IMG/VR virus record: IMGVR_UViG_3300045988_162556
Direction: 5' to 3' (one strand)
Length of the DNA: 58,533 nt
Source of the DNA: a virus
Made by a program: the position numbers and the translations under genes. This document shows, in pieces, positions 3,101-39,765 of this stretch (its first letter is position 1; every line of letters starts with the position of its first letter). Under the pieces are notes generated by a model. That model saw only the letters and a program-made list of their open reading frames with translations, was not told the DNA's origin and did no database searches.

Positions 3101-4546
3101 GGCGAAGATGGCCAGCCCGGACCATATACCGACTTCAAATACGCATCGAGCAGTGACGATAGCATAGGCCCAGATATTGAATCAAACGTAAGAGAGCCGG
3201 ACGGCTGGTATGACAATCCTCCGGCGCTTTCGTCCGGGGAATATCTATGGATGACCAAAGCGCAAGTAGATGCAAATGACGAGCTTGTGGAACCGTGGTC
3301 CGACCCGGTACGCATAAGCGGAGAACAAGGCAAGCCGGGGGACAAAGGAGACCCCGGATATCAGGGTTGCATTATCCGCCTAACGGAATGGGTTTCGGGT
3401 GTAGAATATCGCAACGACGCTGATTTAGAATCAGACAGCCTGCGCTACATAGACATAGTGACTGTATATGAGAATAATCGACAACTGAAATTCCAATGCC
3501 GTCAGACTCATACTTCATCGAACTCCAATAAACCATCCGGGGGAACCACATCGACATATTGGCAACAGCTCAACGACATGGTGCCCATATATACGCCTCT
3601 ACTGTTTGCCGAGAACGCCGTTATCAACTTCCTGCAAGGTATGGAGTTCGTAGTCCACAACTCCAAAACGGATATTTCCGAAAATACCATCATCGCAGGA
3701 CTCGTAGGCGGCGATATCCCTCTGTTTGTCGGTAGCAACACACCGGACAACGCGCCTTTCCGAGTCGCTAAGGACGGTTCGTTTACAGCAACGAAGGCGA
3801 ATATAACGGGTACAATAGAAGCTAAAGAAGGAAAAATAGGCGGATTTACTTTAAGAAGTCCCTCCAATCCTCTTATAGATGCGACATTAGAATGTCATAC
3901 CTTTGATGAGTCTCAACGCAATATTATCAATGGACAGTCGGGAGATTTCACCCAAAGACATACGTATGTATTACAATCCGGATTTATAACATCAAGAGGC
4001 TCTATTAATGGATCTATTGATGATAGAGTAGTTATGTCTCCAACAACGGAATACGGGGGCTGGCCACTTAGTAAAAACGGATCATACAATATTTCTGCAT
4101 CAATATATGCCCAATCAACATCTTTATCAAGACCTTCATGGAGTAGCAATATAGCTTTAATGCTTGGAGCTGGTCCTATGCCATCAAGCGTTCCCCAATT
4201 GAATGATGGGAATTATGCCCTTTGTATGCCGATGGGAATAACTGCAGGCCTTAGACTGTATAATCGCAAAATATCTTCAGATGTAACCCTTGACTATATG
4301 GATTGTTTTGTGACAGTGGATAGCGATGGCGGGAAGCGCACTATCACACTCCCTTACAATCCACAAGACGGTCAACTTTATTATATCCGAAACATAGGAA
4401 CCAAAGGCGTACAACTGAACGGAAACGGGAAGCGGATTGCGATACATACTCAAGGAGCATGGGTTAACTCAGACTCATGGACTGACCGAGAATCCCGTAA
4501 TCTGATCTACTGCGCGAGTGTAGGATGCTGGGTGATGTTCAAATAG
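2..4546 (+). CDS. Main part of the giant tail fibre protein (1,772 codons once joined to 57642..58414)
   Basis: Track ORF 137..4546 is open upstream to base 2 in the same frame as 57642..58533. It contains collagen-like G-x-y runs (GADGRPGTDGRPGVDG, GEQGKPGDKGDPG) and five repeated WSDP/FSTP...G-x-y modules. It sits at the end of the tail module. Confidence 0.8.
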   Translation, partial: NLDKSAIVEQVVFFDDIYPKNTETITSIETVDREIIEGQTDKAYVMYCKDSPFLPSDMIEGETLGATFTSGSLMGRNFELSINYKPETWKPEDGFDKKFEIIAQVETSGESQLIIPNESLHPEPGDTFVLTGVKLPQQRIEEAEEELLKAGKAYAAKNSSDTDVYTCETNPVYCTVNKKNYDAGQAVLLVDPRFGLNGRLSRIQGYEKKLYNEYIATYTIGDNTPYSRIGSIESDVKATLYSQRIGVTDSGAAIYLITRYDSTAAEDYNAYSAKRALWQFANKQFPDTFKGKMTFEDGAQFGDFATGITGIGGLIDKKGNAEMQSLKLRGFLEVPELRYNRVDITMGDTWFAPSAGIIESVDTEAKTITLKLEEGEIGSPRVGDICMGIFHSSESSDNATEDYDDSKGNRRFAGFATCYFRITEELDTTTYKTFKYQLRPVSAAYPKQYHPAPSMTFVGYGSFSNEARQTSRYETRTYQRYLKGVSDWEFISSNIAAQYGDLSNLSVFGIDMKGYSAYLNNIYMSGVIHQFTPGGEEIPTINDRGKWLASETYNKNDEVYHNNAKWRCLVDGTKSEPSTSSEAWVLLMQVPLSSVVPVYKQQNEKPALPTGSTVPPDGWSLEYPEGGDSGASTDVTNIIIDADNEGDVTQDGVFYKLAGKGNNSTVSCKIQFDALSAGATLVLDITAYSEEGYDKLAVGKINVQNVNTADSDTYEAEVSGNGVSTTVVVTAPSAGRHFVNVVYSKDSSGDANGDYGLFRIAYNTSKTIPLWVSFGSVIDGVVQSWSDPARISGADGRPGTDGRPGVDGTDYEWIFTRTTSETAPATPASQDEDDYLPDGWTDDAEGPDNTHPFEWTCKRSKVNGHWGDFSTPSLWAKYSFNGEDGIDGEGVEYIFTRTKTDDPSDIPDVPRVAEYDNPPAPWTDDPMGVDDIYQYEWVSKRIKVNGEWSAFSTPALWAKYSFDGTDGRPGDWTSYVFKKSIDKPGTPISTKPIPDGWEDAPSGDGIWWMSKATINGSTGQASALTWSDPIKVTGEDGQPGPYTDFKYASSSDDSIGPDIESNVREPDGWYDNPPALSSGEYLWMTKAQVDANDELVEPWSDPVRISGEQGKPGDKGDPGYQGCIIRLTEWVSGVEYRNDADLESDSLRYIDIVTVYENNRQLKFQCRQTHTSSNSNKPSGGTTSTYWQQLNDMVPIYTPLLFAENAVINFLQGMEFVVHNSKTDISENTIIAGLVGGDIPLFVGSNTPDNAPFRVAKDGSFTATKANITGTIEAKEGKIGGFTLRSPSNPLIDATLECHTFDESQRNIINGQSGDFTQRHTYVLQSGFITSRGSINGSIDDRVVMSPTTEYGGWPLSKNGSYNISASIYAQSTSLSRPSWSSNIALMLGAGPMPSSVPQLNDGNYALCMPMGITAGLRLYNRKISSDVTLDYMDCFVTVDSDGGKRTITLPYNPQDGQLYYIRNIGTKGVQLNGNGKRIAIHTQGAWVNSDSWTDRESRNLIYCASVGCWVMFK

Positions 4547-14170: not shown

Positions 14171-15502
14171 CTATTCAAGAAGTTTTACAAGATCGGTCTT
14201 CATCTCTTCGTCTATGTCCCTATAGCGGGCAAATGCCTTACTGCCTTCAGTATGCCCAGATAGGGACCCTACAAGGTTCGGGTCCTTGACTTTCTTATAC
14301 AGGTTGCCGATAAAAGTTCGGCGAGCCATATGAGAGGAGGCTACTTGATAAAGCGGCTTCTGTTCGGGTTCACGAGTAATCGGATTGAGCACATTTACCA
14401 TCCGTTTAAGGCCCGCAGCAAGAAAGCATTTTTTAATCGCTTCATTATATTTCTGCTCTGAAATAAACGGCAACAACATCTCATGCTCGGATGATTCATA
14501 TTTTTTTATGATATCCTGAGCAATATTGTTCAGAGGTACACGCACCGTTACCGGATGCCCTTCTTTGGTTTTACGCGGAATATACTCCACAGCGCCCTTT
14601 ACTACATTATTGCGCTTCAGTCCAAGCAAATCCCCTACCCTACATCCAATCAAGCACTGAAATATAAATATATCTCGCTGGACAGCCAGCTTATGATGAC
14701 GGGATAGATTTGTATTATACAGCTTGTTCCGTTCGGCAATTGTAATGTAAATAGGCGTTCCATAGACAGCCTGCTTTATCTCTTTCTTACGGAAGGGATT
14801 GGAGGGTATAAGATCATTATTTGCGGCCCAATTTAAAAAGGCGCGCAACAAGATCATTTTGCTGGCAACAGTATTATGCCCGCGCTGCTGCGGCATTCTT
14901 GAATCCGGAACCAACGTATATATATGGGGATAATCCTCGCATATCTCGTATTCTCTGCGATAAAAGTCCTCAAAGTCATCCAGCATTTCAGGAGTGAACG
15001 TTAATAGGGAGAGTGTGAAATTTCGATCAGAAATCCTCTTATATAATTCGTAACGCTTAAGTACTCGTATAAGCACGTTAAATGCCATTATGCGACGCTC
15101 GGAAAAGTTCTTTTTCGAGATATAGCTTTCGAAACAAGCCCATATATCCTTATCCTGCGACATACCCACCGAGTAGGGTGTAATAACATCACGGAGCCAA
15201 CTCACAGGCAACCCCATCTTCCCCGCCCCGCCATCGATAAAAGACTGCATGACAAAAGAGGTTAATGCCGATAATTTAGCATGGGCCTCATTTGCTTGTT
15301 CGACAATATCCTGCCGGGCTGGCGACATCATCCTATAGCGGGGAATCAAGATTGATTGCGTCTTCTCGTTCCAATATTCAGGCAGAACATATATGCCGGT
15401 CTTGGCACGTTGGTTGAAACGTCCATGAGTAAACCGAATCAGCACCTCGTGTAAACCGCATGAATTTTCCTTAGCCGAGAGGGAGTAGTAGATTGTCGCC
15501 AT
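14171..15502 (-). CDS. int: Tyrosine integrase (Bacteroidota phage/CTn type)
   Basis: 443 aa. The C-terminal catalytic region reads SSHMARRTF...GHTEGSKAFARYRDI (H-x-x-R, H, Y), with a long N-terminal arm/SAM-like region. Convergent with the plus-strand cargo genes. Confidence 0.88.
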   Translation of the reverse strand: MATIYYSLSAKENSCGLHEVLIRFTHGRFNQRAKTGIYVLPEYWNEKTQSILIPRYRMMSPARQDIVEQANEAHAKLSALTSFVMQSFIDGGAGKMGLPVSWLRDVITPYSVGMSQDKDIWACFESYISKKNFSERRIMAFNVLIRVLKRYELYKRISDRNFTLSLLTFTPEMLDDFEDFYRREYEICEDYPHIYTLVPDSRMPQQRGHNTVASKMILLRAFLNWAANNDLIPSNPFRKKEIKQAVYGTPIYITIAERNKLYNTNLSRHHKLAVQRDIFIFQCLIGCRVGDLLGLKRNNVVKGAVEYIPRKTKEGHPVTVRVPLNNIAQDIIKKYESSEHEMLLPFISEQKYNEAIKKCFLAAGLKRMVNVLNPITREPEQKPLYQVASSHMARRTFIGNLYKKVKDPNLVGSLSGHTEGSKAFARYRDIDEEMKTDLVKLLE

Positions 15503-23573: not shown

Positions 23574-24521
23574 CTAATACTCCACAGCCGCCCGACGGTC
23601 GATGAAGAAATGAATACCCGGTGCGCATTCATTCCAACGGCAATCGTCAAAATTAGGGACCTCGACGGTAGCGCCGACCGTATACACGAAGTTGTTGTCA
23701 TGGTTCGAATGAATTGCCTCGATGTCGGCTTTGGTTCCATCGGCATTCTGAATCTCCGCCACATAGGCTTTGTCGCAACGACATTTTTCACCTCCGGCAG
23801 AACTTCGGCGGGCGTCTTCCGGAATTTGTAGCTTCACGACATAGCCCGAAGCCTTCTTCCAGCCGATAAAACTGCCATCGGTAGGACAAGCCATATATGC
23901 GCCTTTGGCTTCGCACAGGTCGGCTCCGCACAGGTTGGCTCTGCGCAGGTTGGCTTCGTACAGGTCGGCTCCGCGCAGGTTGGCTCTGCACAGGTCGGCT
24001 CCGCACAGGTCGGCTCCGCACAGGTTGGCTCCGCACAGGTCGGCTCTGCGCAGGTTGGCTCCGCACAGGTCGGCTCCGCACAGGTCGGCTCCGCACAGGT
24101 TGGCTCCGCACAGGTCGGCTCTGCGCAGGTTGGCTCTGCACAGGTCGGCTCCGCACAGGTCGGCTCCGCACAGGTTGGCTCCGCACAGGTCGGCTCTGCG
24201 CAGGTTGGCTCCGCGCAGGTTGGCTCCGCGCAGGTTGGCTCCGCACAGGTCGGCTCCGCACAGGTCGGCTCCGCACAGGTTGGCTCCGCACAGGTCGGCT
24301 CTGCGCAGGTTGGCTTCGCACAGGTCGGCTCCGCACAGGTTGGCTCTGCGCAGGTTGGCTTCGTACAGGTCGGCTCCGCACAGGTTGGCTCCGCGTAGGT
24401 TGGCTTCGCTTTTAATAGCTTCGGATACGGTCTTTTTAATTGTGTTATTTTCGGACAAATACTCGAAAAGTATATTACCTGTCCACCGATTTTTTATCTC
24501 AATTTTGATTTGCTTGCTCAT
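23574..24521 (-). CDS. Pentapeptide-repeat protein with a Cys-rich C-terminal globular domain
   Basis: By my count there are 33 uninterrupted A(D/N)L(C/R/Y)(G/R/E) pentapeptides. They are followed by a roughly 110-aa domain ([11 protein letters not shown]...[17 protein letters not shown]). Confidence 0.8.
23910..24404. repeat. Near-perfect 15-nt periodic tandem array encoding the pentapeptide repeats
   Basis: Units such as GCACAGGTCGGCTCC and GCGCAGGTTGGCTCT are iterated without interruption. No stop codons occur in four frames, which generates the shadow ORFs. Confidence 0.9.
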
Positions 24522-24557: not shown

Positions 24558-25430
24558 CTATTTCAAGTACCACAGATACTGACCGTTGACCGACTCCAAC
24601 GTAAAGTTATCTTCAAGCGATCCGGCCATGCGTTTGAATCGGATATATGCCATAGCCTCATCTCGTGTATAACATTTCCGTCCTGATTGCGTATTTGGTG
24701 GATTATTTCTCTCCAGAGCTTTGTCCATTTTCGCATAAGTGACAAAGGCTGTATAGGCGTTTGTATGCTTCAAGTACGCCTGTTTGCTTTGCATGGTAGC
24801 TATCAAACGACGAATATCTTTCACGCTGTAATCTTGAAATAGCCAAACTATCTGCACCTCCGTTAGGGGTTCCGGCATTGAGGCAATACATGGAGCGTTC
24901 GTGGTGATCCATCGTATGAGTTCCGCAGCCTCCGCCTCTTTCCCCCCTACAACCCCCTTTTTAGTATCTACCAGTGTGTGTGTATATTCTTCTATTCTTT
25001 CTTTCTTATATTCTTTAGTTGTGGTTATTTGTTGGTTATCTGTTGGTTGTTCGCTGGTTATTTGTTGGTTATCTGTTGGTTGACAACCATTATCAAAACC
25101 ATCCTGTGCTTGTTGGTATAAATCATAATTACAGACAGTTATGATAGTATATTTGCGTGTTCCCGACTTGGTTATAAACCCGCAATTATCCAGCTTGTCT
25201 ATTGCGGTGCGTATTTGCATCTCCGAAAGTCCTGTCTCTTCGGATAGCTGTCCTCTGCTGGTTACCAATTGTCCGCGGTCGATGATTAAACCCTTCCACT
25301 TCTTGGCCCGGTAATTTGCCTTCAAAATGAAATGCAATGCCAGCCGCACACAGTTCGTATCCGGATACCATTCCCAATCAAGGAAGCTGCGATACATCTT
25401 AATCCAGCTGTTATTTGAAGTGTTACACAT
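24558..25430 (-). CDS. Putative replication initiator / replisome organizer (N-terminal winged-helix)
   Basis: WIKMYRSFLDWEWYPDTNCVRLALHFILKANY...GQLVTSRGQLSEETGLSEMQIRTAIDKL is the usual phage DnaD/replisome-organizer-like N-terminus. It sits in the replication module and contains an internal 33-bp duplication. Confidence 0.5.
   Translation of the reverse strand: MCNTSNNSWIKMYRSFLDWEWYPDTNCVRLALHFILKANYRAKKWKGLIIDRGQLVTSRGQLSEETGLSEMQIRTAIDKLDNCGFITKSGTRKYTIITVCNYDLYQQAQDGFDNGCQPTDNQQITSEQPTDNQQITTTKEYKKERIEEYTHTLVDTKKGVVGGKEAEAAELIRWITTNAPCIASMPEPLTEVQIVWLFQDYSVKDIRRLIATMQSKQAYLKHTNAYTAFVTYAKMDKALERNNPPNTQSGRKCYTRDEAMAYIRFKRMAGSLEDNFTLESVNGQYLWYLK
25023..25088. repeat. Six 11-bp phased repeats (GGTTATTTGTT GGTTATCTGTT GGTTGTTCGCT, twice); iteron/ori candidate inside the initiator gene
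   Basis: Units start at 25023, 25034, 25045, 25056, 25067 and 25078. An AT-rich stretch follows at 25089-25160. Confidence 0.6.
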
Positions 25431-31216: not shown

Positions 31217-32263
31217 TTAGAATAATGTCTCGGAATAATGTTTGATAATTGAAATCATCGTAGTTTTTATACCGGTTCCGCTTTCTTTGAAAGCCCCCTC
31301 TTTCACGTCCAAGACCTCGGCACCTACATTTTGTAGCCATTCCCGGAACTCAGCGCATTTTTTTTCAGAGCCAATTTTCCAATGAGAACTACATATAACG
31401 GCCATCCGCCCTCCCGTACGAAGTAGTTCATACATTTTCATAGTATGATCTACGTCTTGATTATTGCTAAACGGAGGATTTGCAATTATAAGCGAATACG
31501 TATCATGGCACTCTGTGATGAAATTCTCGCCTTTTATCCTAACGCCCGATATTCCATGAAGAATTTCTCTGTTCTCGGGCATAAGTTCGTAACAGTCAAC
31601 AATGACCGATGGGCAGCTGCGATGGATAGCTTTTACCAAAGCTCCGCGGCCTGCACTCGGTTCCAGCACGTCGTCCGTATCTCGAATACCTCCAACCAAC
31701 GATACCAATAAATCGGCTACTTCCGCCGGAGTTTCAAAAAATTGAAACTCCTGTGCTAAATTACAGCGGCCTGTCGTATGCAATTGATTAAATACGCGGT
31801 TGGCGTCAAATGGGAATCTGAAAGCCTGTATTTTCCCTCCTACCCACTCGCCGCCAGCCTCTTCTATGCGCTTTTTAGCCTCCGCATATGATTGTTTATT
31901 GAACTGTGTCGGTGGCAATTTAAGCATATTGTCCTTCAAGGTGCAGTGCTTAAGTATTTCATCCGCGCTCCACTTTGCGCCTGTATCCTCTTTTGAGGCC
32001 TTTCCCGCGGGTTGCTCGTCGATACCCAACATATTCTGCAAAGCCTTCATGGCGTTGTTTTCTATAGTCATAAGATCGGACATGAACTCTAAAAGAGCCA
32101 TCATGAAATCACAATCTACATGCCCTGTATCGTCATATATGTCGCGGTCTTTAAGAAGCGCGGGAATCTCGGACAGCGGTTTAATGCTACCATGTAACGC
32201 TTTTATTAAAGTCTCGTTTCTGCTCTGCATAGCTCCTTTGTAGATAAATTCTTGTCGTCTCAA
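31217..32263 (-). CDS. N6-adenine DNA methyltransferase (gamma-class order) with an uncharacterised N-terminal domain
   Basis: DVLEPSAGRGALV (motif I) precedes LIIANPPFS (NPPF, motif IV). The start is uncertain: the ORF overlaps the recombinase stop, and alternative Mets lie at 32230 and 32104. Confidence 0.75.
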   Translation of the reverse strand: MRRQEFIYKGAMQSRNETLIKALHGSIKPLSEIPALLKDRDIYDDTGHVDCDFMMALLEFMSDLMTIENNAMKALQNMLGIDEQPAGKASKEDTGAKWSADEILKHCTLKDNMLKLPPTQFNKQSYAEAKKRIEEAGGEWVGGKIQAFRFPFDANRVFNQLHTTGRCNLAQEFQFFETPAEVADLLVSLVGGIRDTDDVLEPSAGRGALVKAIHRSCPSVIVDCYELMPENREILHGISGVRIKGENFITECHDTYSLIIANPPFSNNQDVDHTMKMYELLRTGGRMAVICSSHWKIGSEKKCAEFREWLQNVGAEVLDVKEGAFKESGTGIKTTMISIIKHYSETLF

Positions 32264-33302
32264 TACTTCCGTGTCCCAGGATGTCCGCCAATTGGACTAT
32301 ATCGTTTTTCTTTTTTAGAAACATCTTTGCAAAAAGGTGCCGAAATGCGTGTGGGTGCATCTTATCTGATGAAATACCACATTCGGCACCCCATTTTTGC
32401 AAACATTCCCGCAACCATCTATTGCTGTACTGACGGCCTTGCGAATTACTGTATACAGGATATGATCTATTCTCTATTCCCACGTATTCCGCAACACGAG
32501 ATGATACATCTTTCGGGAAAAAGATACGGCGATATTTGTTGCCCTTGCTATTTATCAAGACCTCGCCGTTAATCACGTCTTGCCACGTCAATTTGGCAAA
32601 CTCCGACTGTCGCACCCCTGATGTCGCCAAGATGCGAACCCACCAATAATATTTCTTATCTTGAAAATTGAGCAAATAATCCAACATCTTTTGATACTCC
32701 GATTCAGTAGGGATGTTATCAAGGGCCAATGATTTCTGAATTTTGGGCCTGCGAATCTCTATCGGTTTCTTAATATAATTCCCGAATTGCTCAAGAGCCG
32801 TAATGCGTAATCTTATAGTCGACGGCTTCTGGCCCTCGTCGCTTAAAGTTTGGATGAACCTCCGGACGTTCTCCGCATTATATTCGGAGGCATATTTGAA
32901 GAAAGAAGATATACCAAATCGGTATGTCGCTATTGTATTGGGAGAATAGTCCTTCACTGTAGTTATATGCTCCAAGAAATTAGCTAATAATTCCTTGTTC
33001 TTCTCCGATACCTTATCCAATTTCTCCAGTGGCTTGGACGGTCGGGCTGTCGTCTTATATCCGATGCCGAACGTTGCGAGGAAATCACATATTGACTCGG
33101 ACATTATGCTTATATGCTGCCACCCAACGTCGGCAATATGGGATTTGCGATACTTAAGATACCCCCGCCGATTAATAGTATCGGCTTGTTCAAGGAATGA
33201 CGCAACGTGCATTATGTACATTCCACATTTTCGGTACGACATCCCGCGATTATACAGCCCCGATATATATTCGGACAGCATAGCTTGACGTGTTGCTTCC
33301 AT
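32187..33302 (-). CDS. Second tyrosine recombinase (XerC/D-like)
   Basis: SGVRQSEFAKLTWQDV...HPHAFRHLFAKMFL...LGHGSIETTRIYLQRS gives the R, H-x-x-R, H and Y catalytic residues. Confidence 0.85.
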   Translation of the reverse strand: MEATRQAMLSEYISGLYNRGMSYRKCGMYIMHVASFLEQADTINRRGYLKYRKSHIADVGWQHISIMSESICDFLATFGIGYKTTARPSKPLEKLDKVSEKNKELLANFLEHITTVKDYSPNTIATYRFGISSFFKYASEYNAENVRRFIQTLSDEGQKPSTIRLRITALEQFGNYIKKPIEIRRPKIQKSLALDNIPTESEYQKMLDYLLNFQDKKYYWWVRILATSGVRQSEFAKLTWQDVINGEVLINSKGNKYRRIFFPKDVSSRVAEYVGIENRSYPVYSNSQGRQYSNRWLRECLQKWGAECGISSDKMHPHAFRHLFAKMFLKKKNDIVQLADILGHGSIETTRIYLQRSYAEQKRDFNKSVTW

Positions 33303-33525: not shown

Positions 33526-33759
33526 CTATTGGCAGGAATCCGCGACCTGTGGCATATAGTACTCGTTAAACTGCGTCGGCCGCCCGTCTTCCGTAACGGC
33601 CTTCTGTCTGTTCGAGCAAATGGAATATCCCATTTTACGGAGCCGGCTGATGATCCGACGAAGCTCCGTTGTGTGGTAGAGTCTCTCGGCCTTGCGGACC
33701 GTAAGCCTGCCGCCGGCCTTGAGATAGGCGAGAATCTTACTTTGCGGATCGTGTGTCAT
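33526..33759 (-). CDS. Small winged-helix/HTH DNA-binding protein
   Basis: ILAYLKAGGRLTVRKAERLYHTTELRRIISRLRKMGYSI resembles HTH_39-type domains. Confidence 0.5.
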   Translation of the reverse strand: MTHDPQSKILAYLKAGGRLTVRKAERLYHTTELRRIISRLRKMGYSICSNRQKAVTEDGRPTQFNEYYMPQVADSCQ

Positions 33760-34033
33760 AGGACTTCACGTATTTGCCGCTTTTGCCGCGGGTCCGATTG
33801 AACTTCTGGAGTTTACCCTCCAATTCAAGGACTCGTTTTTGCATAGAATCAAGATTGTGAGTGAGCGCCAGAAATTTCTGGTTCATGCTTGCCAGATCCT
33901 GATACGCAGTTTCGCGTTCCGCAAGAGCTTTGCCTACCTCGTTTTCCAGCTCCTCGATCCTTTTCCACATCTTCCAGCGGGGCGTCAGGTCGAACCAAAG
34001 GAAGGTTCTCTTTTTCAAAATCTCTCTCTTCAT
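33737..34033 (-). CDS. Hypothetical coiled-coil protein
   Basis: 98-aa ORF. Confidence 0.45.
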   Translation of the reverse strand: MKREILKKRTFLWFDLTPRWKMWKRIEELENEVGKALAERETAYQDLASMNQKFLALTHNLDSMQKRVLELEGKLQKFNRTRGKSGKYVKSYDTRSAK

Positions 34034-34516
34034 AGCTATAATGTTTTAAGGTGTTTCAAAAAAAAGCCCGCGCGCCGTCACACACAAACATCCACGTCAA
34101 CCAAAACCTACCAACCTCCAAATCAGCACGCGGGCATGAAGCAGGCTTTGCGCTATGCAAATAATGAAAAACTACTAAATTACCCTGATTGGAAAGAACG
34201 TGTGCACAAAGCCTGCATTAGAGCCTGTGAAGGCGATCAAACCCGCACAGGCATAATAATGCTTTATTTATCCCGGTGGTCCTCGCCGCTCATGTCATCG
34301 CAGCTTCGGAACCTATGCCAGTCTTTTGCGCGTTCAAGCTATTCGCTCTTGCGGGGCTATCACTTCGAGCCTTGCCCACGGCCCGCCGATAACGCTATTA
34401 TCGGCCTAACGGATCGCTTTATACCTTGCGGCGGGGTTACTGCCAGCGATCAAACCCCTCACCTATTCGGGTGGCTTAGGTCCCGCGCTGCCGATCAAAG
34501 CAGCGCGGAAATATTT
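34034..34516 (-). other. GC-rich, hairpin-dense 483-nt intergenic element (candidate large ncRNA, leader, or ori/pac-type DNA element)
   Basis: No credible minus-strand ORF. Many stems are present, including three hairpins with TTTGATCG-containing loops. The element ends in GCCCGCGTGC...GCGCGCGGGC followed by T8, just upstream of the 34033 ATG. Confidence 0.45.
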
Positions 34517-34930
34517 TTATAGCATACTCTGAATGCGCTCTTTGTCCCATCCTGAGATGCGGCCATACTCATCAATATTCATTATGATGCAATCTCCATA
34601 ACCAGATTCTTCAGGACAAAGGACGTTGGGGACATACTCATTGGCAAAATGCCTAATTACATTACCTTTTGAATCAATTAGACTATAAACTCCATCATCA
34701 CATACTTTATAATCTACGCTTGCTTTTACGCCTTGCGGCCAATCGACAATAATTCCCTTGTCAATATCAATATTGATGATCCAGCGGCCGCTTTTGGAAA
34801 ATGGCATTGCAGGGTAGTTTGGATCATCAGTTACCCCATTGACAGATCCATCATCCCAATATCGCACTCCAGCGTTTACTTTGAGAATCTTTACATCAAC
34901 CTCTTGTGGCTGCATAACAATAACCTTCAT
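34517..34930 (-). CDS. Hypothetical protein
   Basis: 137-aa ORF. Confidence 0.5.
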   Translation of the reverse strand: MKVIVMQPQEVDVKILKVNAGVRYWDDGSVNGVTDDPNYPAMPFSKSGRWIINIDIDKGIIVDWPQGVKASVDYKVCDDGVYSLIDSKGNVIRHFANEYVPNVLCPEESGYGDCIIMNIDEYGRISGWDKERIQSML

Positions 34931-35760: not shown

Positions 35761-36147
35761 ATGCCTGATAAACTGATAGATAAGGCCGTAGAATTACTAC
35801 GAAGCACACAAGACACTCCGTATAAAATCGCCAAAGCGACTGGATTGTCACAAACAATTATCGGCAAATGGAAGAAAGGAGAAGGCAAGCCGAGTAGAGC
35901 AAATGCCAGATACATACTCCAATATTTTGGCATACCCAACATAGAAGACCAACCTATCAGCCAAGGAGGCGAAGACGTCACGCTGCCGAAAGCTGAAACA
36001 AACAACTTAGATACTATGGAGAGAATGAAATTCTTTGAAGCTCTCGAACGACGAGATCAGGAAGTATCCAGACTGATCACCATCATCGAGAAGATGCAAG
36101 GCATCACGCAAGGGGCAGAATCGGCTGCCCAAAAAAAAGAGGCGTAG
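35761..36147 (+). CDS. CI/Cro-like HTH regulator
   Basis: TPYKIAKATGLSQTIIGKWKKGEGKPSRANARYILQYFGI is an XRE-type HTH. The C-terminal part is helical. Confidence 0.6.
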   Translation: MPDKLIDKAVELLRSTQDTPYKIAKATGLSQTIIGKWKKGEGKPSRANARYILQYFGIPNIEDQPISQGGEDVTLPKAETNNLDTMERMKFFEALERRDQEVSRLITIIEKMQGITQGAESAAQKKEA

Positions 36148-36413
36148 CGGTATTCTAATTAGCCTTATTCCATCTCCATTAGAGCGAAAGAAATATGACA
36201 AAATTAAACCGTCTAAAATAAGCTCCATATAGCGAGCAACACACTTAAAGGAGATTACGGTCTCCTTAAAAAACGGCCGAGGCGTCAGTAGGCCAAAACA
36301 TAAAAACTTCGGATTATTTCAATAGCACAAATATTTTTTACTCTTTTCTCACCATTTCATTTCGAGATAGGACAAATTCACCACAAAATTAACAGTGCTC
36401 AATATTGTTACAG

Positions 36414-36666
36414 ATGATACAAAGTATTTATGATTTTTTCGAATTAGATATTAAGGACATTTTCAAATATTCTCCTCAATTATATACCTGAAATAAGATT
36501 TAAACCAATTGAGCAGGCAATAAGGGAAGACAAGATAGATTATGCTAAGTTGGGTCAATCGTTGCTTGCCCAAAGGTCCTGCATGTCATCTACAACAAAA
36601 GGAGAAGATGCAACGAATCGAATCATTATTGAATCAGGTGATCTTAAACCCGAAAATGCCGCATAA
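36414..36666 (+). pseudogene. Possible frameshifted small gene immediately upstream of the SecB-like gene
   Basis: The ATG at 36414 opens a 25-codon frame that stops at 36489..36491. The +1 frame is open from 36448 to TAA at 36664, with no ATG before 36583, and reads ...FKPIEQAIREDKIDYAKLGQSLLAQ...IIIESGDLKPENAA. It ends 3 nt before the SecB-like ATG. Confidence 0.25.
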
Positions 36667-36669
36667 AGT

Positions 36670-37733: not shown

Positions 37734-38348
37734 ATGGCAAAAGGTCTTACCATAAAACAGGAGAAGTTTTGCAACAAGTACCTCGAATGCGGAAATGCGT
37801 CCGAGGCTTACCGCTTTGCGTATGACTGCTCGAAGATGAGTGATGATTCTGTTTGGTGCAACGCCTCGCAATTGTTATCCGACACAAAGGTAACACAAAG
37901 GGTCAAAGAGCTGCAGACCGAATTGCAGAAGGCAAGCGACATATCCAAAGAGCGGGTATTGGAAGAACTCGGCGCAATACTGGAAGCCCGCATAACAGAC
38001 TATGTAAATCTGGTTACAGAGCGGGTCCCCCTGCCCCAAAGCAAACGCGAGAAGAAGGCAGGGGTTCCCGTCGAATATACAGAAGTTCAAAAACTTGTTT
38101 TCAAGGACTTCGACCAGCTCACTGACAGGCAGGTCCGAGCCATTGAGAGCATCAAGGAGGGGAAGAACGGGATCGAGCTAAAGTTGCATGGCAAATCATG
38201 GACCATCGAGCGCATATCCAAAATGCTGGGCTATGATGCGCCCGTAAAAACAGCCAACACTGACAGCAAGGGAAATGACATTCCCCAGCCTACCTTCAGT
38301 ACAGAGCGTCTATTCCAGTTAATCAAGGAGAGTGGAGGCAATGAATGA
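37734..38348 (+). CDS. terS: Terminase small subunit
   Basis: LTIKQEKFCNKYLECGNASEAYRFAY is the Terminase_2-type N-terminus. The gene precedes terL. Confidence 0.8.
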   Translation: MAKGLTIKQEKFCNKYLECGNASEAYRFAYDCSKMSDDSVWCNASQLLSDTKVTQRVKELQTELQKASDISKERVLEELGAILEARITDYVNLVTERVPLPQSKREKKAGVPVEYTEVQKLVFKDFDQLTDRQVRAIESIKEGKNGIELKLHGKSWTIERISKMLGYDAPVKTANTDSKGNDIPQPTFSTERLFQLIKESGGNE

Positions 38349-39765
38349 TTACTCAGGAGTCGGTGATCTCTTGATAAAAGAGGGTTGTTTGGCATTCACA
38401 GCTGTAATGTTTGAAGCAGTGAATAAACAGCCTTTCCGCATAGCCCCTCATCACCGCGTAATATGCCACAAGCTCGACCAAGTACTCCGGGGAGAACATC
38501 CCACCAATAGGTTGATGTTTAATATTCCTCCACGGCATTCAAAAACAGAATTGGCCGTAGTATCCTTCTCTTCGCTCGGATTTGCAATAAATCCCCGCTC
38601 CGAATTTATACACCTTTCAAGCAGTGACCAGCTCACCACTCGAAATGTCACAAACATCCGGAGAATTATGGAGGACCCCAACTATCGCGCTTTCTTTCCA
38701 CAGGTAGAGCTTTCCAACAATGCCAAAGGAAGCATCTCAACCTCTGACGGAGGTGTCATGTATGCAGCGCCCTTTATGGGTCAGATCACCGGCTTTGGAT
38801 GCGGTAAATTGGGTGCCCAAGACTTTAGCGGCGCAATGTGCATAGATGATCCGATGAAAGCTCAGGACAGCTGCTCAAGCACGACCAAGGCACGCATCGG
38901 AGAGTTGTGGACATCCACATTCAAGAACCGCCTTAACGATGTGCGCACACCCGTTATTGTAACCGCTCAAAGACTCGCCGTGGATGATTTCTGCGGATAC
39001 TTATTGGAATTGGAGGGCACAATTGAAGAGGGAGGAGAATGGGATGTCATCAAATTCCCTGCAATTGTAGATGACGGATTGCCCACTGAGCATGCACTAT
39101 GGGAAGGCCGATTTGCGCTGGATAAATTAAAGAGGTATCGGGAATCGGACCCATTTACCTTTGAAACACAATACATGCAGAATCCCAAGCCTATTGAGGG
39201 ACTCATGTATCGGGAGTTTCGGACATACGACGTTATACCATACTCCCAAAGCACTATCCATAAGAACTATACGGATACCGCAGACACGGGAAGCGATTAT
39301 CTATGCTCCATCTGCTACGATGAACTTCCGGAGGGAAATTACGTAACGGATGTGCTGTATACTAAAAAACCAATGGAGTATACAGAACCCAAAACGGCGG
39401 AGATGCTCGCAAAAAACAAAACCGAAATAGCGAATATCGAAAGCAATAACGGGGGCCGAGGATTTGCCCGCAACGTTGAGCGAATTTTACGGGAAATGAA
39501 CATTACCCGAACTACTATAAGCTGCTTCACTCAGACGGCTAACAAGCAAGTGCGCATTTTCACCAAGTCGGCAGACGTCAATAACATCACTTACTTCCCC
39601 ACAGGTTGGGATAAACGATGGCCGGAATTTTACCGCGCTATTACAGGATACATGAAGGAGGGTGGGAATGCCAATGACGATGCCCCGGATGCGCTCACCG
39701 GGTGTTATGAAAAACGCAGTACTCCTTTACGTGATGATGATTTGAACGATATTAATATTTGGTAA
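38341..39765 (+). CDS. terL: Terminase large subunit
   Basis: PPRHSKTE (Walker A-like), MCIDDP (Walker B) and the C-terminal nuclease acidic motif DTADTGSDY. The ATG at 38341 overlaps the terS end. Confidence 0.9.
   Translation: MNDYSGVGDLLIKEGCLAFTAVMFEAVNKQPFRIAPHHRVICHKLDQVLRGEHPTNRLMFNIPPRHSKTELAVVSFSSLGFAINPRSEFIHLSSSDQLTTRNVTNIRRIMEDPNYRAFFPQVELSNNAKGSISTSDGGVMYAAPFMGQITGFGCGKLGAQDFSGAMCIDDPMKAQDSCSSTTKARIGELWTSTFKNRLNDVRTPVIVTAQRLAVDDFCGYLLELEGTIEEGGEWDVIKFPAIVDDGLPTEHALWEGRFALDKLKRYRESDPFTFETQYMQNPKPIEGLMYREFRTYDVIPYSQSTIHKNYTDTADTGSDYLCSICYDELPEGNYVTDVLYTKKPMEYTEPKTAEMLAKNKTEIANIESNNGGRGFARNVERILREMNITRTTISCFTQTANKQVRIFTKSADVNNITYFPTGWDKRWPEFYRAITGYMKEGGNANDDAPDALTGCYEKRSTPLRDDDLNDINIW

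Follow-up and report, generated by a model that had tools for sequence, protein, structure and literature searches.

A predicted multi-domain structured RNA upstream of the coiled-coil and HTH_39 genes of human-gut phages

The 58,533-nt stretch of DNA analysed here (IMG/VR record IMGVR_UViG_3300045988_162556; hereafter, the window) is a siphovirus-like phage genome, with terminase, SPP1-type portal and major capsid genes at 37–44 kb on the plus strand and a long block of early genes on the minus strand that runs from 35326 down to 14171. This block starts with a LuxR/GerE-type helix-turn-helix (HTH) gene and a 137-aa open reading frame (ORF; 34517..34930, minus strand), which matches no family, and continues, beyond a gap of 483 nt (34034–34516), with a 98-aa coiled-coil ORF (33737..34033, minus strand) and an HTH_39 winged-helix ORF. 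Next come tRNA-Gln, a tyrosine integrase and a methyltransferase and, farther along, Erf, a DnaD/O-like replication initiator, another methyltransferase, a PAPS reductase and a second integrase. All early genes downstream of the gap lie on the same strand, and at 35761 an HTH_3 repressor-like gene is oriented divergently to the block. Comparison with related sequences shows that the minus strand of the gap encodes a structured RNA that is conserved and made up of several domains. We describe this element, its relatives and the ways in which it may act in the early gene block.

A first-pass annotation had singled out the gap as long, GC-rich, dense in hairpins and free of a credible minus-strand ORF. 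The longest minus-strand ORF within it is indeed only 34 aa. Its GC content is the highest of the long non-coding gaps of the window, which span 25% to 52%, but the enrichment is mild (50.9% versus 47.5% for the window). The hairpins reported earlier (34483–34508, 34433–34458, 34223–34252 and 34386–34404) are all present. A repeat finder recovered the exact duplication of the 12-mer GCGATCAAACCC at 34233 and 34446, and the terminal stem, a 10-bp inverted repeat (34066–34075 / 34126–34135) followed by T8 at 34058–34065. The other inverted repeats it returned were the 9-bp hairpin at 34483–34508 and a 13-bp pair at 34141–34153 / 34204–34216. Direct repeats comprise just two short two-copy families, the 12-mer and a 10-mer, and no AT-rich stretch was found in the element. 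The motif TTTGATCG is present in four copies in the 58.5-kb window, which is about the level seen in shuffled sequences, and three of the four fall inside the 483-nt gap on one strand. The folding energy of the single sequence is unexceptional (z = −1.4 for the minus strand and −2.0 for the plus strand) and uninformative here; the case for structure rests on the comparison with relatives. The sole other long non-coding gap of the window (36148–36669; 522 nt, 35% GC) lies between the HTH_3 repressor-like gene and the packaging and structural genes.

In loci fetched via the 98-aa protein, the element stands directly upstream of that gene wherever upstream sequence exists. Its nucleotide identity is 68–99% in these loci, although the 98-aa protein is mostly only 55–57% identical, so that the element is better conserved than its neighbours. 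Homology sets in at about 34476, after the first hairpin (H0, see below), and continues to the start codon of the next gene. Wider searches, described below, gave 51 distinct full-length variants of 367–480 nt, which we aligned. Six helices with a total of 35 pairs have 99.5% of their alignment cells paired, compared to 27–49% when the partners are slid against each other. Compensatory changes occur at nine pairs, versus zero to four in the slid controls, and none of 500 shuffles reaches the observed covariation score. The 5′ domain alone, pseudoknot included, is 97% paired. More than 130 cells hold G-U pairs and about eight are unpaired, and this frequency of G-U together with the rarity of non-pairs identifies the folding strand as the minus strand of the window; the plus strand is disfavoured because minus-strand G-U pairs would be A-C mismatches there. 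One of the roles proposed in the first-pass annotation, a large structured non-coding RNA or leader, is thus borne out in that relatives retain the element, and pairing in its helices is preserved by compensatory and G-U changes on the minus strand. We consider it very probable that the minus strand encodes a functional structured RNA.

The comparative fold carries little energetic penalty: folded under its constraints, the window sequence has a free energy of −162.6 kcal/mol, to which the pseudoknot adds about −9 kcal/mol, and the unconstrained minimum is −169.4 kcal/mol, so that the constraints cost approximately 7 kcal/mol before the pseudoknot is counted. RNAalifold applied to the whole alignment returned part of the structure only, because the types do not share a homologous central module and the long stem was misaligned on its 3′ side; a column-pair scan and anchored extraction were used in its place.

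The RNA is predicted to span 34058..34478 on the minus strand, with its ends inferred, and consists of a core followed by a 3′ terminator hairpin and U-tract. Its length is about 420 nt in the window and 235–480 nt across relatives. From 5′ to 3′, a highly conserved 5′ domain with P1, P2 and its pseudoknot, and a GCAA hairpin is followed by a swappable central module, by a 3′ hairpin in which the loop motif is repeated, by a long-range stem of 13 bp, and by a GC-rich terminal stem with U8. In the 5′ domain, the P1 hairpin (34460..34473) pairs CACC with GGUG; one of its C-G pairs is A-U in 24 of the 51 variants, and an A-U pair changes to G-U or G-C. P2 (34433..34458) pairs GGGGUU with AACCCC in a stem that is invariant in all 51 variants, and presents the near-invariant loop UGAUCGCUGGCAGU, the 3′ half of which, CGCUGGCA, is retained even in the divergent types E and F. 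Seven nucleotides of this loop, GAUCGCU (34445–34451), form a pseudoknot with AGCGAUC, 30 nt downstream (34412–34418); its seven base pairs are 99.5–100% paired, with a C-G pair replaced by U-A via U-G and, in the divergent IMG/VR locus L374, a G-C pair replaced by A-U. The pseudoknot (34412..34451) encloses P3 (34423..34432), a GCC-GCAA-GGU hairpin with a GNRA tetraloop, in which we see one-sided changes to G-U and one double change, and which is deleted in the minimal type F. This GCAA hairpin is supported by the relatives, and the CGC-AAGA-GCG loop given in the first-pass annotation as an example of GNRA-like loops is not.

The central domain (34253..34411) is replaced in relatives by at least three alternative hairpin modules. 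In the window it contains the P4 hairpin (34386–34404), the conserved unpaired motif GCGCAAAAGACUGGCA (34316–34331) and the interrupted hairpin P7 (34308–34313 with 34278–34282, and 34300–34304 with 34285–34289). The hairpins particular to each type show compensatory differences of their own (GCCGC/GCGGC versus GCGGA/UCCGC, CCGGA/UCCGG versus GCGGA/UCCGC, and GCG/CGC versus CCG/CGG), although the pairings in this domain were read from the sequences by eye, the column scan supports a few of them only, and fewer independent comparisons underlie these helices than the others. In a contig of a Ca. Scatousia genome bin (L380:~2560–2640), a hairpin of the central domain is tandemly triplicated, its stems covary (GAGAG/CUCUC versus GUCGGA/UCCGAC) and its loop GCCGUUACCA is conserved. 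The triplication shows growth of the RNA by hairpin duplication.

Downstream of the central domain, the hairpin H3′ (34223..34252) encloses the loop CGGGUUUGAUCGCCUU, a second copy of the loop motif, between GCCUGUG and CACAGGC. A U-A pair in this stem is C-G in 24 of the 51 variants, and types D and E (GCCAUAGCGGGG/CUCCGCUAUGGC) as well as the Alistipes versions (GGCUAUAUCAC and GUGGUAUAGCC around UUUGAUCG) have wholly different stems; no consistent pairing partner was found for the H3′ loop. The long-range stem that follows (34141..34216) consists of 13 bp between GCAGGCUUUGUGC and GCGCAAAGCCUGC and is present in 50 of the 51 variants in six sequence combinations that are compensatory at three positions. 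It encloses the conserved single-stranded ACACGUUCUUUC (34192–34203), from which GUUCUUUC may pair with GAAAGAC (34321–34327) of the central domain in a helix of 6–7 bp with a bulged U; the changes seen in these two segments are one-sided only. Type F is devoid of both ACACGUUCUUUC and the GAAAGAC segment. At its 3′ end the element displays a terminal stem-loop (34058..34135), in which GCCCGCGUGC and GCGCGCGGGC form a 10-bp stem that is followed by U8 in the manner of an intrinsic terminator, 24 nt before the start codon of the 98-aa gene. Between the two, 11–14 nt before the ATG, is the junction motif ACCUUAAAA (34044..34052), which is conserved whether the coiled-coil gene or the HTH_39 gene follows. 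CCTTAAAA occurs just twice in the window, and the junction motif does not mark the start sites of this phage in general.

The loop shared by the hairpins is a persisting 8-nt YUUGAYCG closed by G-C or C-G, found in H3′ (UUUGAUCG or UUUGACCG in the Alistipes versions) and in H0. The common loop motif noticed in the first-pass annotation is maintained even in distant Alistipes prophages; conservation in relatives was one of the checks named there. H0 (34483..34508, minus strand) is a perfect 9-bp inverted repeat of CCGCGCUGC and GCAGCGCGG around the loop UUUGAUCG. It accompanies the 137-aa gene in L001, L002 and L051, and occupies the position at which, in most relatives, a tRNA-like gene has its T-arm (loop UUCGAAU) and acceptor end. 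All six of the 137 contexts that lack the tRNA-like gene have a hairpin at this place, with the loop UUUGAUCG, UUUGACCG or GGCUUGACCGCC. H0 also scores as a terminator on the plus strand, where its 3′ flank is AAATATTTTT, and it could terminate transcription in both directions, separating the 137-aa gene from any antisense transcript.

The element is widespread in human-gut viromes, where it recurs in hundreds of contigs of Bacteroidales phages. A scan with the P2 hairpin pattern retrieved 101 viral contigs, and a looser pattern identified at least 81 family members in metagenome contigs, all of them from the human gut; in total, the element was located in 141 distinct contexts, nearly all human gut. 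The exact 98-aa protein occurs in 228 blocks of an index of public assemblies, and all seven contigs listed are human-gut metagenome contigs. Following synteny via HTH_39 led to the divergent types E, F and L374 (IMG/VR), which do not carry the exact pattern, and each of the distant HTH_39 homologues fetched from IMG/VR has a divergent version upstream of it. Versions are also found in Alistipes and Ca. Scatousia genome bins, which makes Rikenellaceae/Bacteroidales the likely hosts; the terminase of the window has its nearest matches among proteins of human-faecal, Bacteroides fragilis and Porphyromonas phages. A relaxed pattern applied to viral contigs returned nothing beyond the same family. 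The 5′-domain pattern had no match in 185,579 reference (species-representative) genomes, yet divergent versions that lack this pattern are carried by genome-bin contigs of up to 122 kb. A blastn search of GenBank phages found no similar DNA. Rfam 15, at gathering and permissive thresholds, assigned no family to the window, to the element alone or to five relatives, and reported only tRNA genes outside the element.

The same comparisons bear on the readings in which the gap is something other than an RNA gene. The plus strand holds a 128-codon ORF antisense to the element (34136..34522), and were it a real small gene, the hairpins would be incidental. It is open in the window and in near-identical relatives, was called by one gene caller (in L174), and ends at a plus-strand terminator-like hairpin. 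Its translation matches no Pfam or PHROG family, however, and its database matches are 14 fragmentary ORFs of differing lengths, all of which derive from this same element. Its start codon and frame are lost in L007, which is 99% identical, and in all L013-type relatives. Substitutions number 16–19 at each codon position with no excess at the third, and many indels are not multiples of three, including lengths 1, 2 and 5. The first-pass annotation had named conserved protein homologues of this ORF as what would count against its non-coding reading; given the absence of real homologues and the broken frame, we attach almost no weight to a gene here. A different possibility is that the gap acts as DNA, as an origin sensitive to Dam methylation, a pac or attP site, or an array of protein-binding hairpins. 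The four GATC sites counted earlier are all there (34235, 34412, 34448 and 34493) and share 483 bp with three copies of TTTGATCG, the phage carries methyltransferases and integrases, and a gene for a DNA-binding winged-helix protein always adjoins. Nevertheless, the variants contain between zero and four GATC sites, nine have none, and no site is conserved. The GATC of the loop is replaced in relatives by GATT, GACC, GAAT or AATC, and two of the four sites of the window are the two strands of the covarying pseudoknot helix GAUCGCU/AGCGAUC, palindromic by chance. The compensatory and G-U changes work on one strand only, which is a signature of RNA. Moreover, the replication initiator (24558–25430) is about 9 kb and the terminase (38332–39765) about 4 kb from the element, and the repeat content described above comprises only two short direct-repeat families and no AT-rich stretch. 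As for attP, the integrase nearby (32187–33302) is missing in relatives that keep the element, and the distribution over reference genomes and genome bins given above does not favour a DNA site either. The Dam, ori and pac proposals of the first-pass annotation are not supported, and we regard any DNA-level role as very unlikely. In the window as a whole, GATC is scarce, with 187 sites compared to 285 ± 16 expected from dinucleotide-preserving shuffles, despite the DNA methyltransferases that the phage bears.

A third reading, in which the RNA serves as the template or guide of a reverse transcriptase (RT) or recombinase, such as a UG27 non-coding RNA array, a retron msr-msd or a bridge RNA, would explain the modular hairpins, the pseudoknot, the Bacteroidales phage setting and the gain and loss of hairpin units. 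These traits resemble the description of UG27 arrays, which are likewise found in Bacteroidota in a phage context and are built from hairpin and pseudoknot units that come and go (10.64898/2026.09.22.753630). Whereas those arrays repeat ~150-nt units in tandem, the element forms one composite RNA, and has no RT, sORF or bORF beside it: the ORFs of at least 250 aa in the window are all assigned to another function or lack a Pfam match, small HTH and coiled-coil genes and tRNAs make up the conserved surroundings in more than 100 loci, and the tyrosine integrase nearby is not conserved. UG27 membership was rejected, as no UG27 RT with two accessory proteins figures among the ORFs of at least 250 aa of the window or among the conserved neighbours, and we hold an RT- or recombinase-linked role to be extremely improbable.

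The surroundings of the element are conserved on both sides. In 131 of 137 contexts, a tRNA-like gene is found within 60 nt upstream and ends 6–8 nt before the RNA (for instance at ~3340–3555 in L005, 298–408 in L012 and 4325–4419, minus strand, in L070; also in L095 and L165); the window has no counterpart. Two of the upstream tRNA-like genes score above threshold with the Rfam tRNA model. The tRNA-like 3′ end before the element belongs to a complete, phage-borne tRNA-like gene that itself comes after phage ORFs. The tRNA-like genes have constant acceptor, D and T arms, whereas the anticodon arm is replaced or interrupted by a variable insert of 41–119 nt; with ARAGORN in intron mode, their identity varies inconsistently between Ser(ACU), Gly(UCC) and Leu(UAA). 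The tRNA-like gene could be a tRNA-shaped scaffold with a variable cargo. In some relatives (L026:4635–4720, L022 and L002:5496–5581), a tRNA called as Ser with the unusual anticodon ACU is found just upstream of tRNA-Gln(UUG); in the window, tRNA-Gln lies about 650 nt downstream of the element.

On the other side, 109 of the 111 contexts that were retrieved by pattern, independently of the protein, have an HTH_39 gene within 1.4 kb downstream on the same strand, which follows the RNA either directly or after the coiled-coil gene. Still, the RNA is not a general leader of the HTH_39 gene family, because HTH_39 homologues up to 63% identical occur without it; those at 63% identity come directly after a NinG gene. 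In another phage group (L375–L378, HTH_39 homologue P0036), the HTH_39 gene stands right after a NinG-like gene with no RNA between them, in a position like that of a nin region. Sequence searches of the PDB with two of the neighbouring proteins were uninformative.

Farther downstream, the segment 31217–33302 of the minus strand, flanked by tRNA-Gln on one side and a conserved 54-aa gene on the other, holds the integrase (371 aa, 32187–33302) and an N6-methyltransferase-like gene (348 aa). Since L013- and L070-type relatives have neither gene, and both types keep the element, this segment looks like an inserted cassette. The second integrase is at 14171–15502. A 315-aa protein encoded at 23574–24521 (minus strand) matches PHROG 7713 in six separate stretches and is internally repetitive.

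The 3′ end of the element resembles a terminator to a degree that varies between types. A GC-rich stem, an A/U-rich spacer of 22–30 nt and an ATG succeed one another in all types (A to E) but the minimal type F. A U-run, U8 in the window, comes after the stem in types A, D and E as well as in the Alistipes versions, and in types D and E the long-range stem is itself the terminator. In the window, the GC-rich stem leads directly into the U-run, as it does in intrinsic terminators. The loop of a typical intrinsic terminator is short, however, and the stem of the window encloses 50 nt; a terminator scan finds only a smaller inner hairpin.

How would such an RNA work? We tentatively favour control in cis. 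The RNA would have no promoter of its own and would be made within the early leftward transcript of the phage, an assignment suggested by the neighbours, which abut it on both sides (the upstream one ends within ~10 nt), and by a scan for sigma-70-type promoters that returned none on the minus strand between 33300 and 35900, a region covering the element and the spacer ahead of the next gene. Its 5′ end would be set by processing beside the upstream tRNA-like gene, for which H0 would stand in in the window. The conserved 5′ domain may be the part that senses a signal or contacts RNA polymerase, and the variable 3′ end may be the expression platform, so that the whole would form a module that sets how much transcription passes the terminator-like stem to the HTH_39 and coiled-coil genes and to some 20 kb of delayed-early genes. 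A role in cis is favoured because (i) one conserved 5′ domain is combined, before the same genes, with terminator-like 3′ ends of different kinds, and (ii) the stem with its U8 has to be passed to reach ~20 kb of early genes on the same strand, a layout that recalls nut and put sites and leaders of the riboswitch type.

Several observations speak against this account. The U-run is weak in the L012 type and absent from the L070 and L066 types, and type F is without any terminal stem. No alternative antiterminator pairing conserved across types was found. Leaders and riboswitches do not usually reach 235–480 nt or exchange their entire central module, and a stable free-standing RNA would account just as well for the adjacency to a tRNA-like gene and for the ornate architecture. 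HTH_39 homologues exist without the RNA, as described above. Bacteroidales promoters were judged by eye only, and the transcript and its ends are inferred. With these points taken into account, we put the probability of the account as a whole, that is, a structured RNA carried in the early transcript and acting in cis, at roughly 45%. The cis mechanism, taken specifically, is a somewhat more tentative proposal, which we place slightly ahead of a free-standing RNA.

Almost as likely is that the element gives rise to a stable, ornate non-coding RNA in the manner of GOLLD and ROOL, which would act in trans, be cut from the early transcript at its 5′ end by tRNA-processing enzymes and be ended by the terminator. 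It might be a mimic or sponge of tRNA or its T-arm, a scaffold, or a multimeric particle. Its setting is appropriate, as it is borne by a phage, lies 6–8 nt after a tRNA-like gene in nearly all contexts and has more tRNA genes just downstream, and so is its build: the RNA is large and multi-domain, contains a pseudoknot and a GNRA loop, and swaps its modules. The conserved unpaired CGCUGGCA, GCGC.AAAGACUGGCA and ACACGUUCUUUC suggest tertiary contacts or the binding of a partner. There are, furthermore, two or three hairpins with the YUUGAYCG loop, with H0 replacing the T-arm where the tRNA-like gene is absent, and a proper terminator ends types A, D and E. Yet the element has no homology to GOLLD, ROOL or any other Rfam family, it was never found away from the HTH_39 or coiled-coil genes, some types have no terminator and hence no defined 3′ end, and the T-loop resemblance is tentative. 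A bolder version, which we judge improbable, sees in the element an RNA machine instead of a simple leader, and with it a new class of large phage RNAs, with T-arm-like hairpins and invariant unpaired motifs beside an insert-bearing tRNA-like gene. Such a machine might bind or process a tRNA-like substrate, sequester a host defence or modification factor that recognises tRNA, or assemble into a multimer like GOLLD and ROOL, and its central module would set the specificity in an arms race.

The adjoining tRNA-like genes bring T-box leaders to mind, which, like the element, are long, structured, leader-like RNAs that end in a terminator and display conserved UGGC-containing loops. No T-box model matches the element, though, and neither a specifier nor an antiterminator bulge was identified in it; T-boxes are not known to occur in phages of Bacteroidota. 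The loops UUUGAUCG and CUUGACCG may resemble the T-loop UUCGAAU, but they are 8 rather than 7 nt long and have U rather than C at position 3, and no tRNA model matches the element. The words GAAAGNCCGG and GAUUGCUGGC resemble RNase P RNA; the likeness found no support from a model and was treated as chance.

In its position, the element is closer to the cis-acting antitermination RNAs of phage early operons, such as nut of lambda (~30–50 nt) and put of HK022 (~70 nt). Like them, it lies in an early operon, downstream of a divergent repressor and promoter region and right before an intrinsic terminator with a long same-strand block beyond, and the next gene encodes a small basic protein, as N does after nutL. 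The conserved single-stranded GUUCUUU is a sequence that we take to resemble the core of boxA, and we keep it as a lead only. The element differs from nut and put in being 5–10 times larger, in matching boxA over 7 nt only, and in having relatives that lack a U-run terminator; it is the position alone that is consistent.

Large structured RNAs with no known function are rare, and RNase P, group I and group II introns, OLE, GOLLD and ROOL each opened new biology. The present element is common in human-gut viromes and is nevertheless missing from Rfam 15. It raises the questions of how early transcription is timed in Bacteroidales phages, about which very little is known, and of what purpose phage tRNA-like genes with large inserts serve, and its recognition corrects a spurious call of a 128-aa ORF on the opposite strand. 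We found no description of this RNA in the literature, with two virome and microbiome surveys covered in part; one of them gave no match in the first 200 of its 408 supplement files. In a large virome survey (PMC10690425), candidate RNAs are at most 151 nt long, and with such a ceiling of ~150 nt, fragments of this RNA are the most that could be recorded there.

The RNAs that the element resembles most in kind are GOLLD and ROOL, large, ornate, tRNA-adjacent RNAs of phages and prophages for which release by tRNA processing and a terminator has been proposed (PMC5737381, PMC12286853). In common with them, the element resides in phages and prophages beside tRNA genes, spans hundreds of nucleotides, and combines many helices with a pseudoknot and a GNRA loop. 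Covariance models of GOLLD and ROOL had no match at E ≤ 10 in the element (481 nt) or in its 1.8-kb surroundings, and none at E ≤ 0.1 in five relatives. Unlike either, the element is smaller (235–480 nt), belongs to Bacteroidales (Alistipes-type) gut phages, is always accompanied by the same small protein genes, and swaps its central domain. We class it as a family of its own, and a new one, among the large structured RNAs that phages encode.

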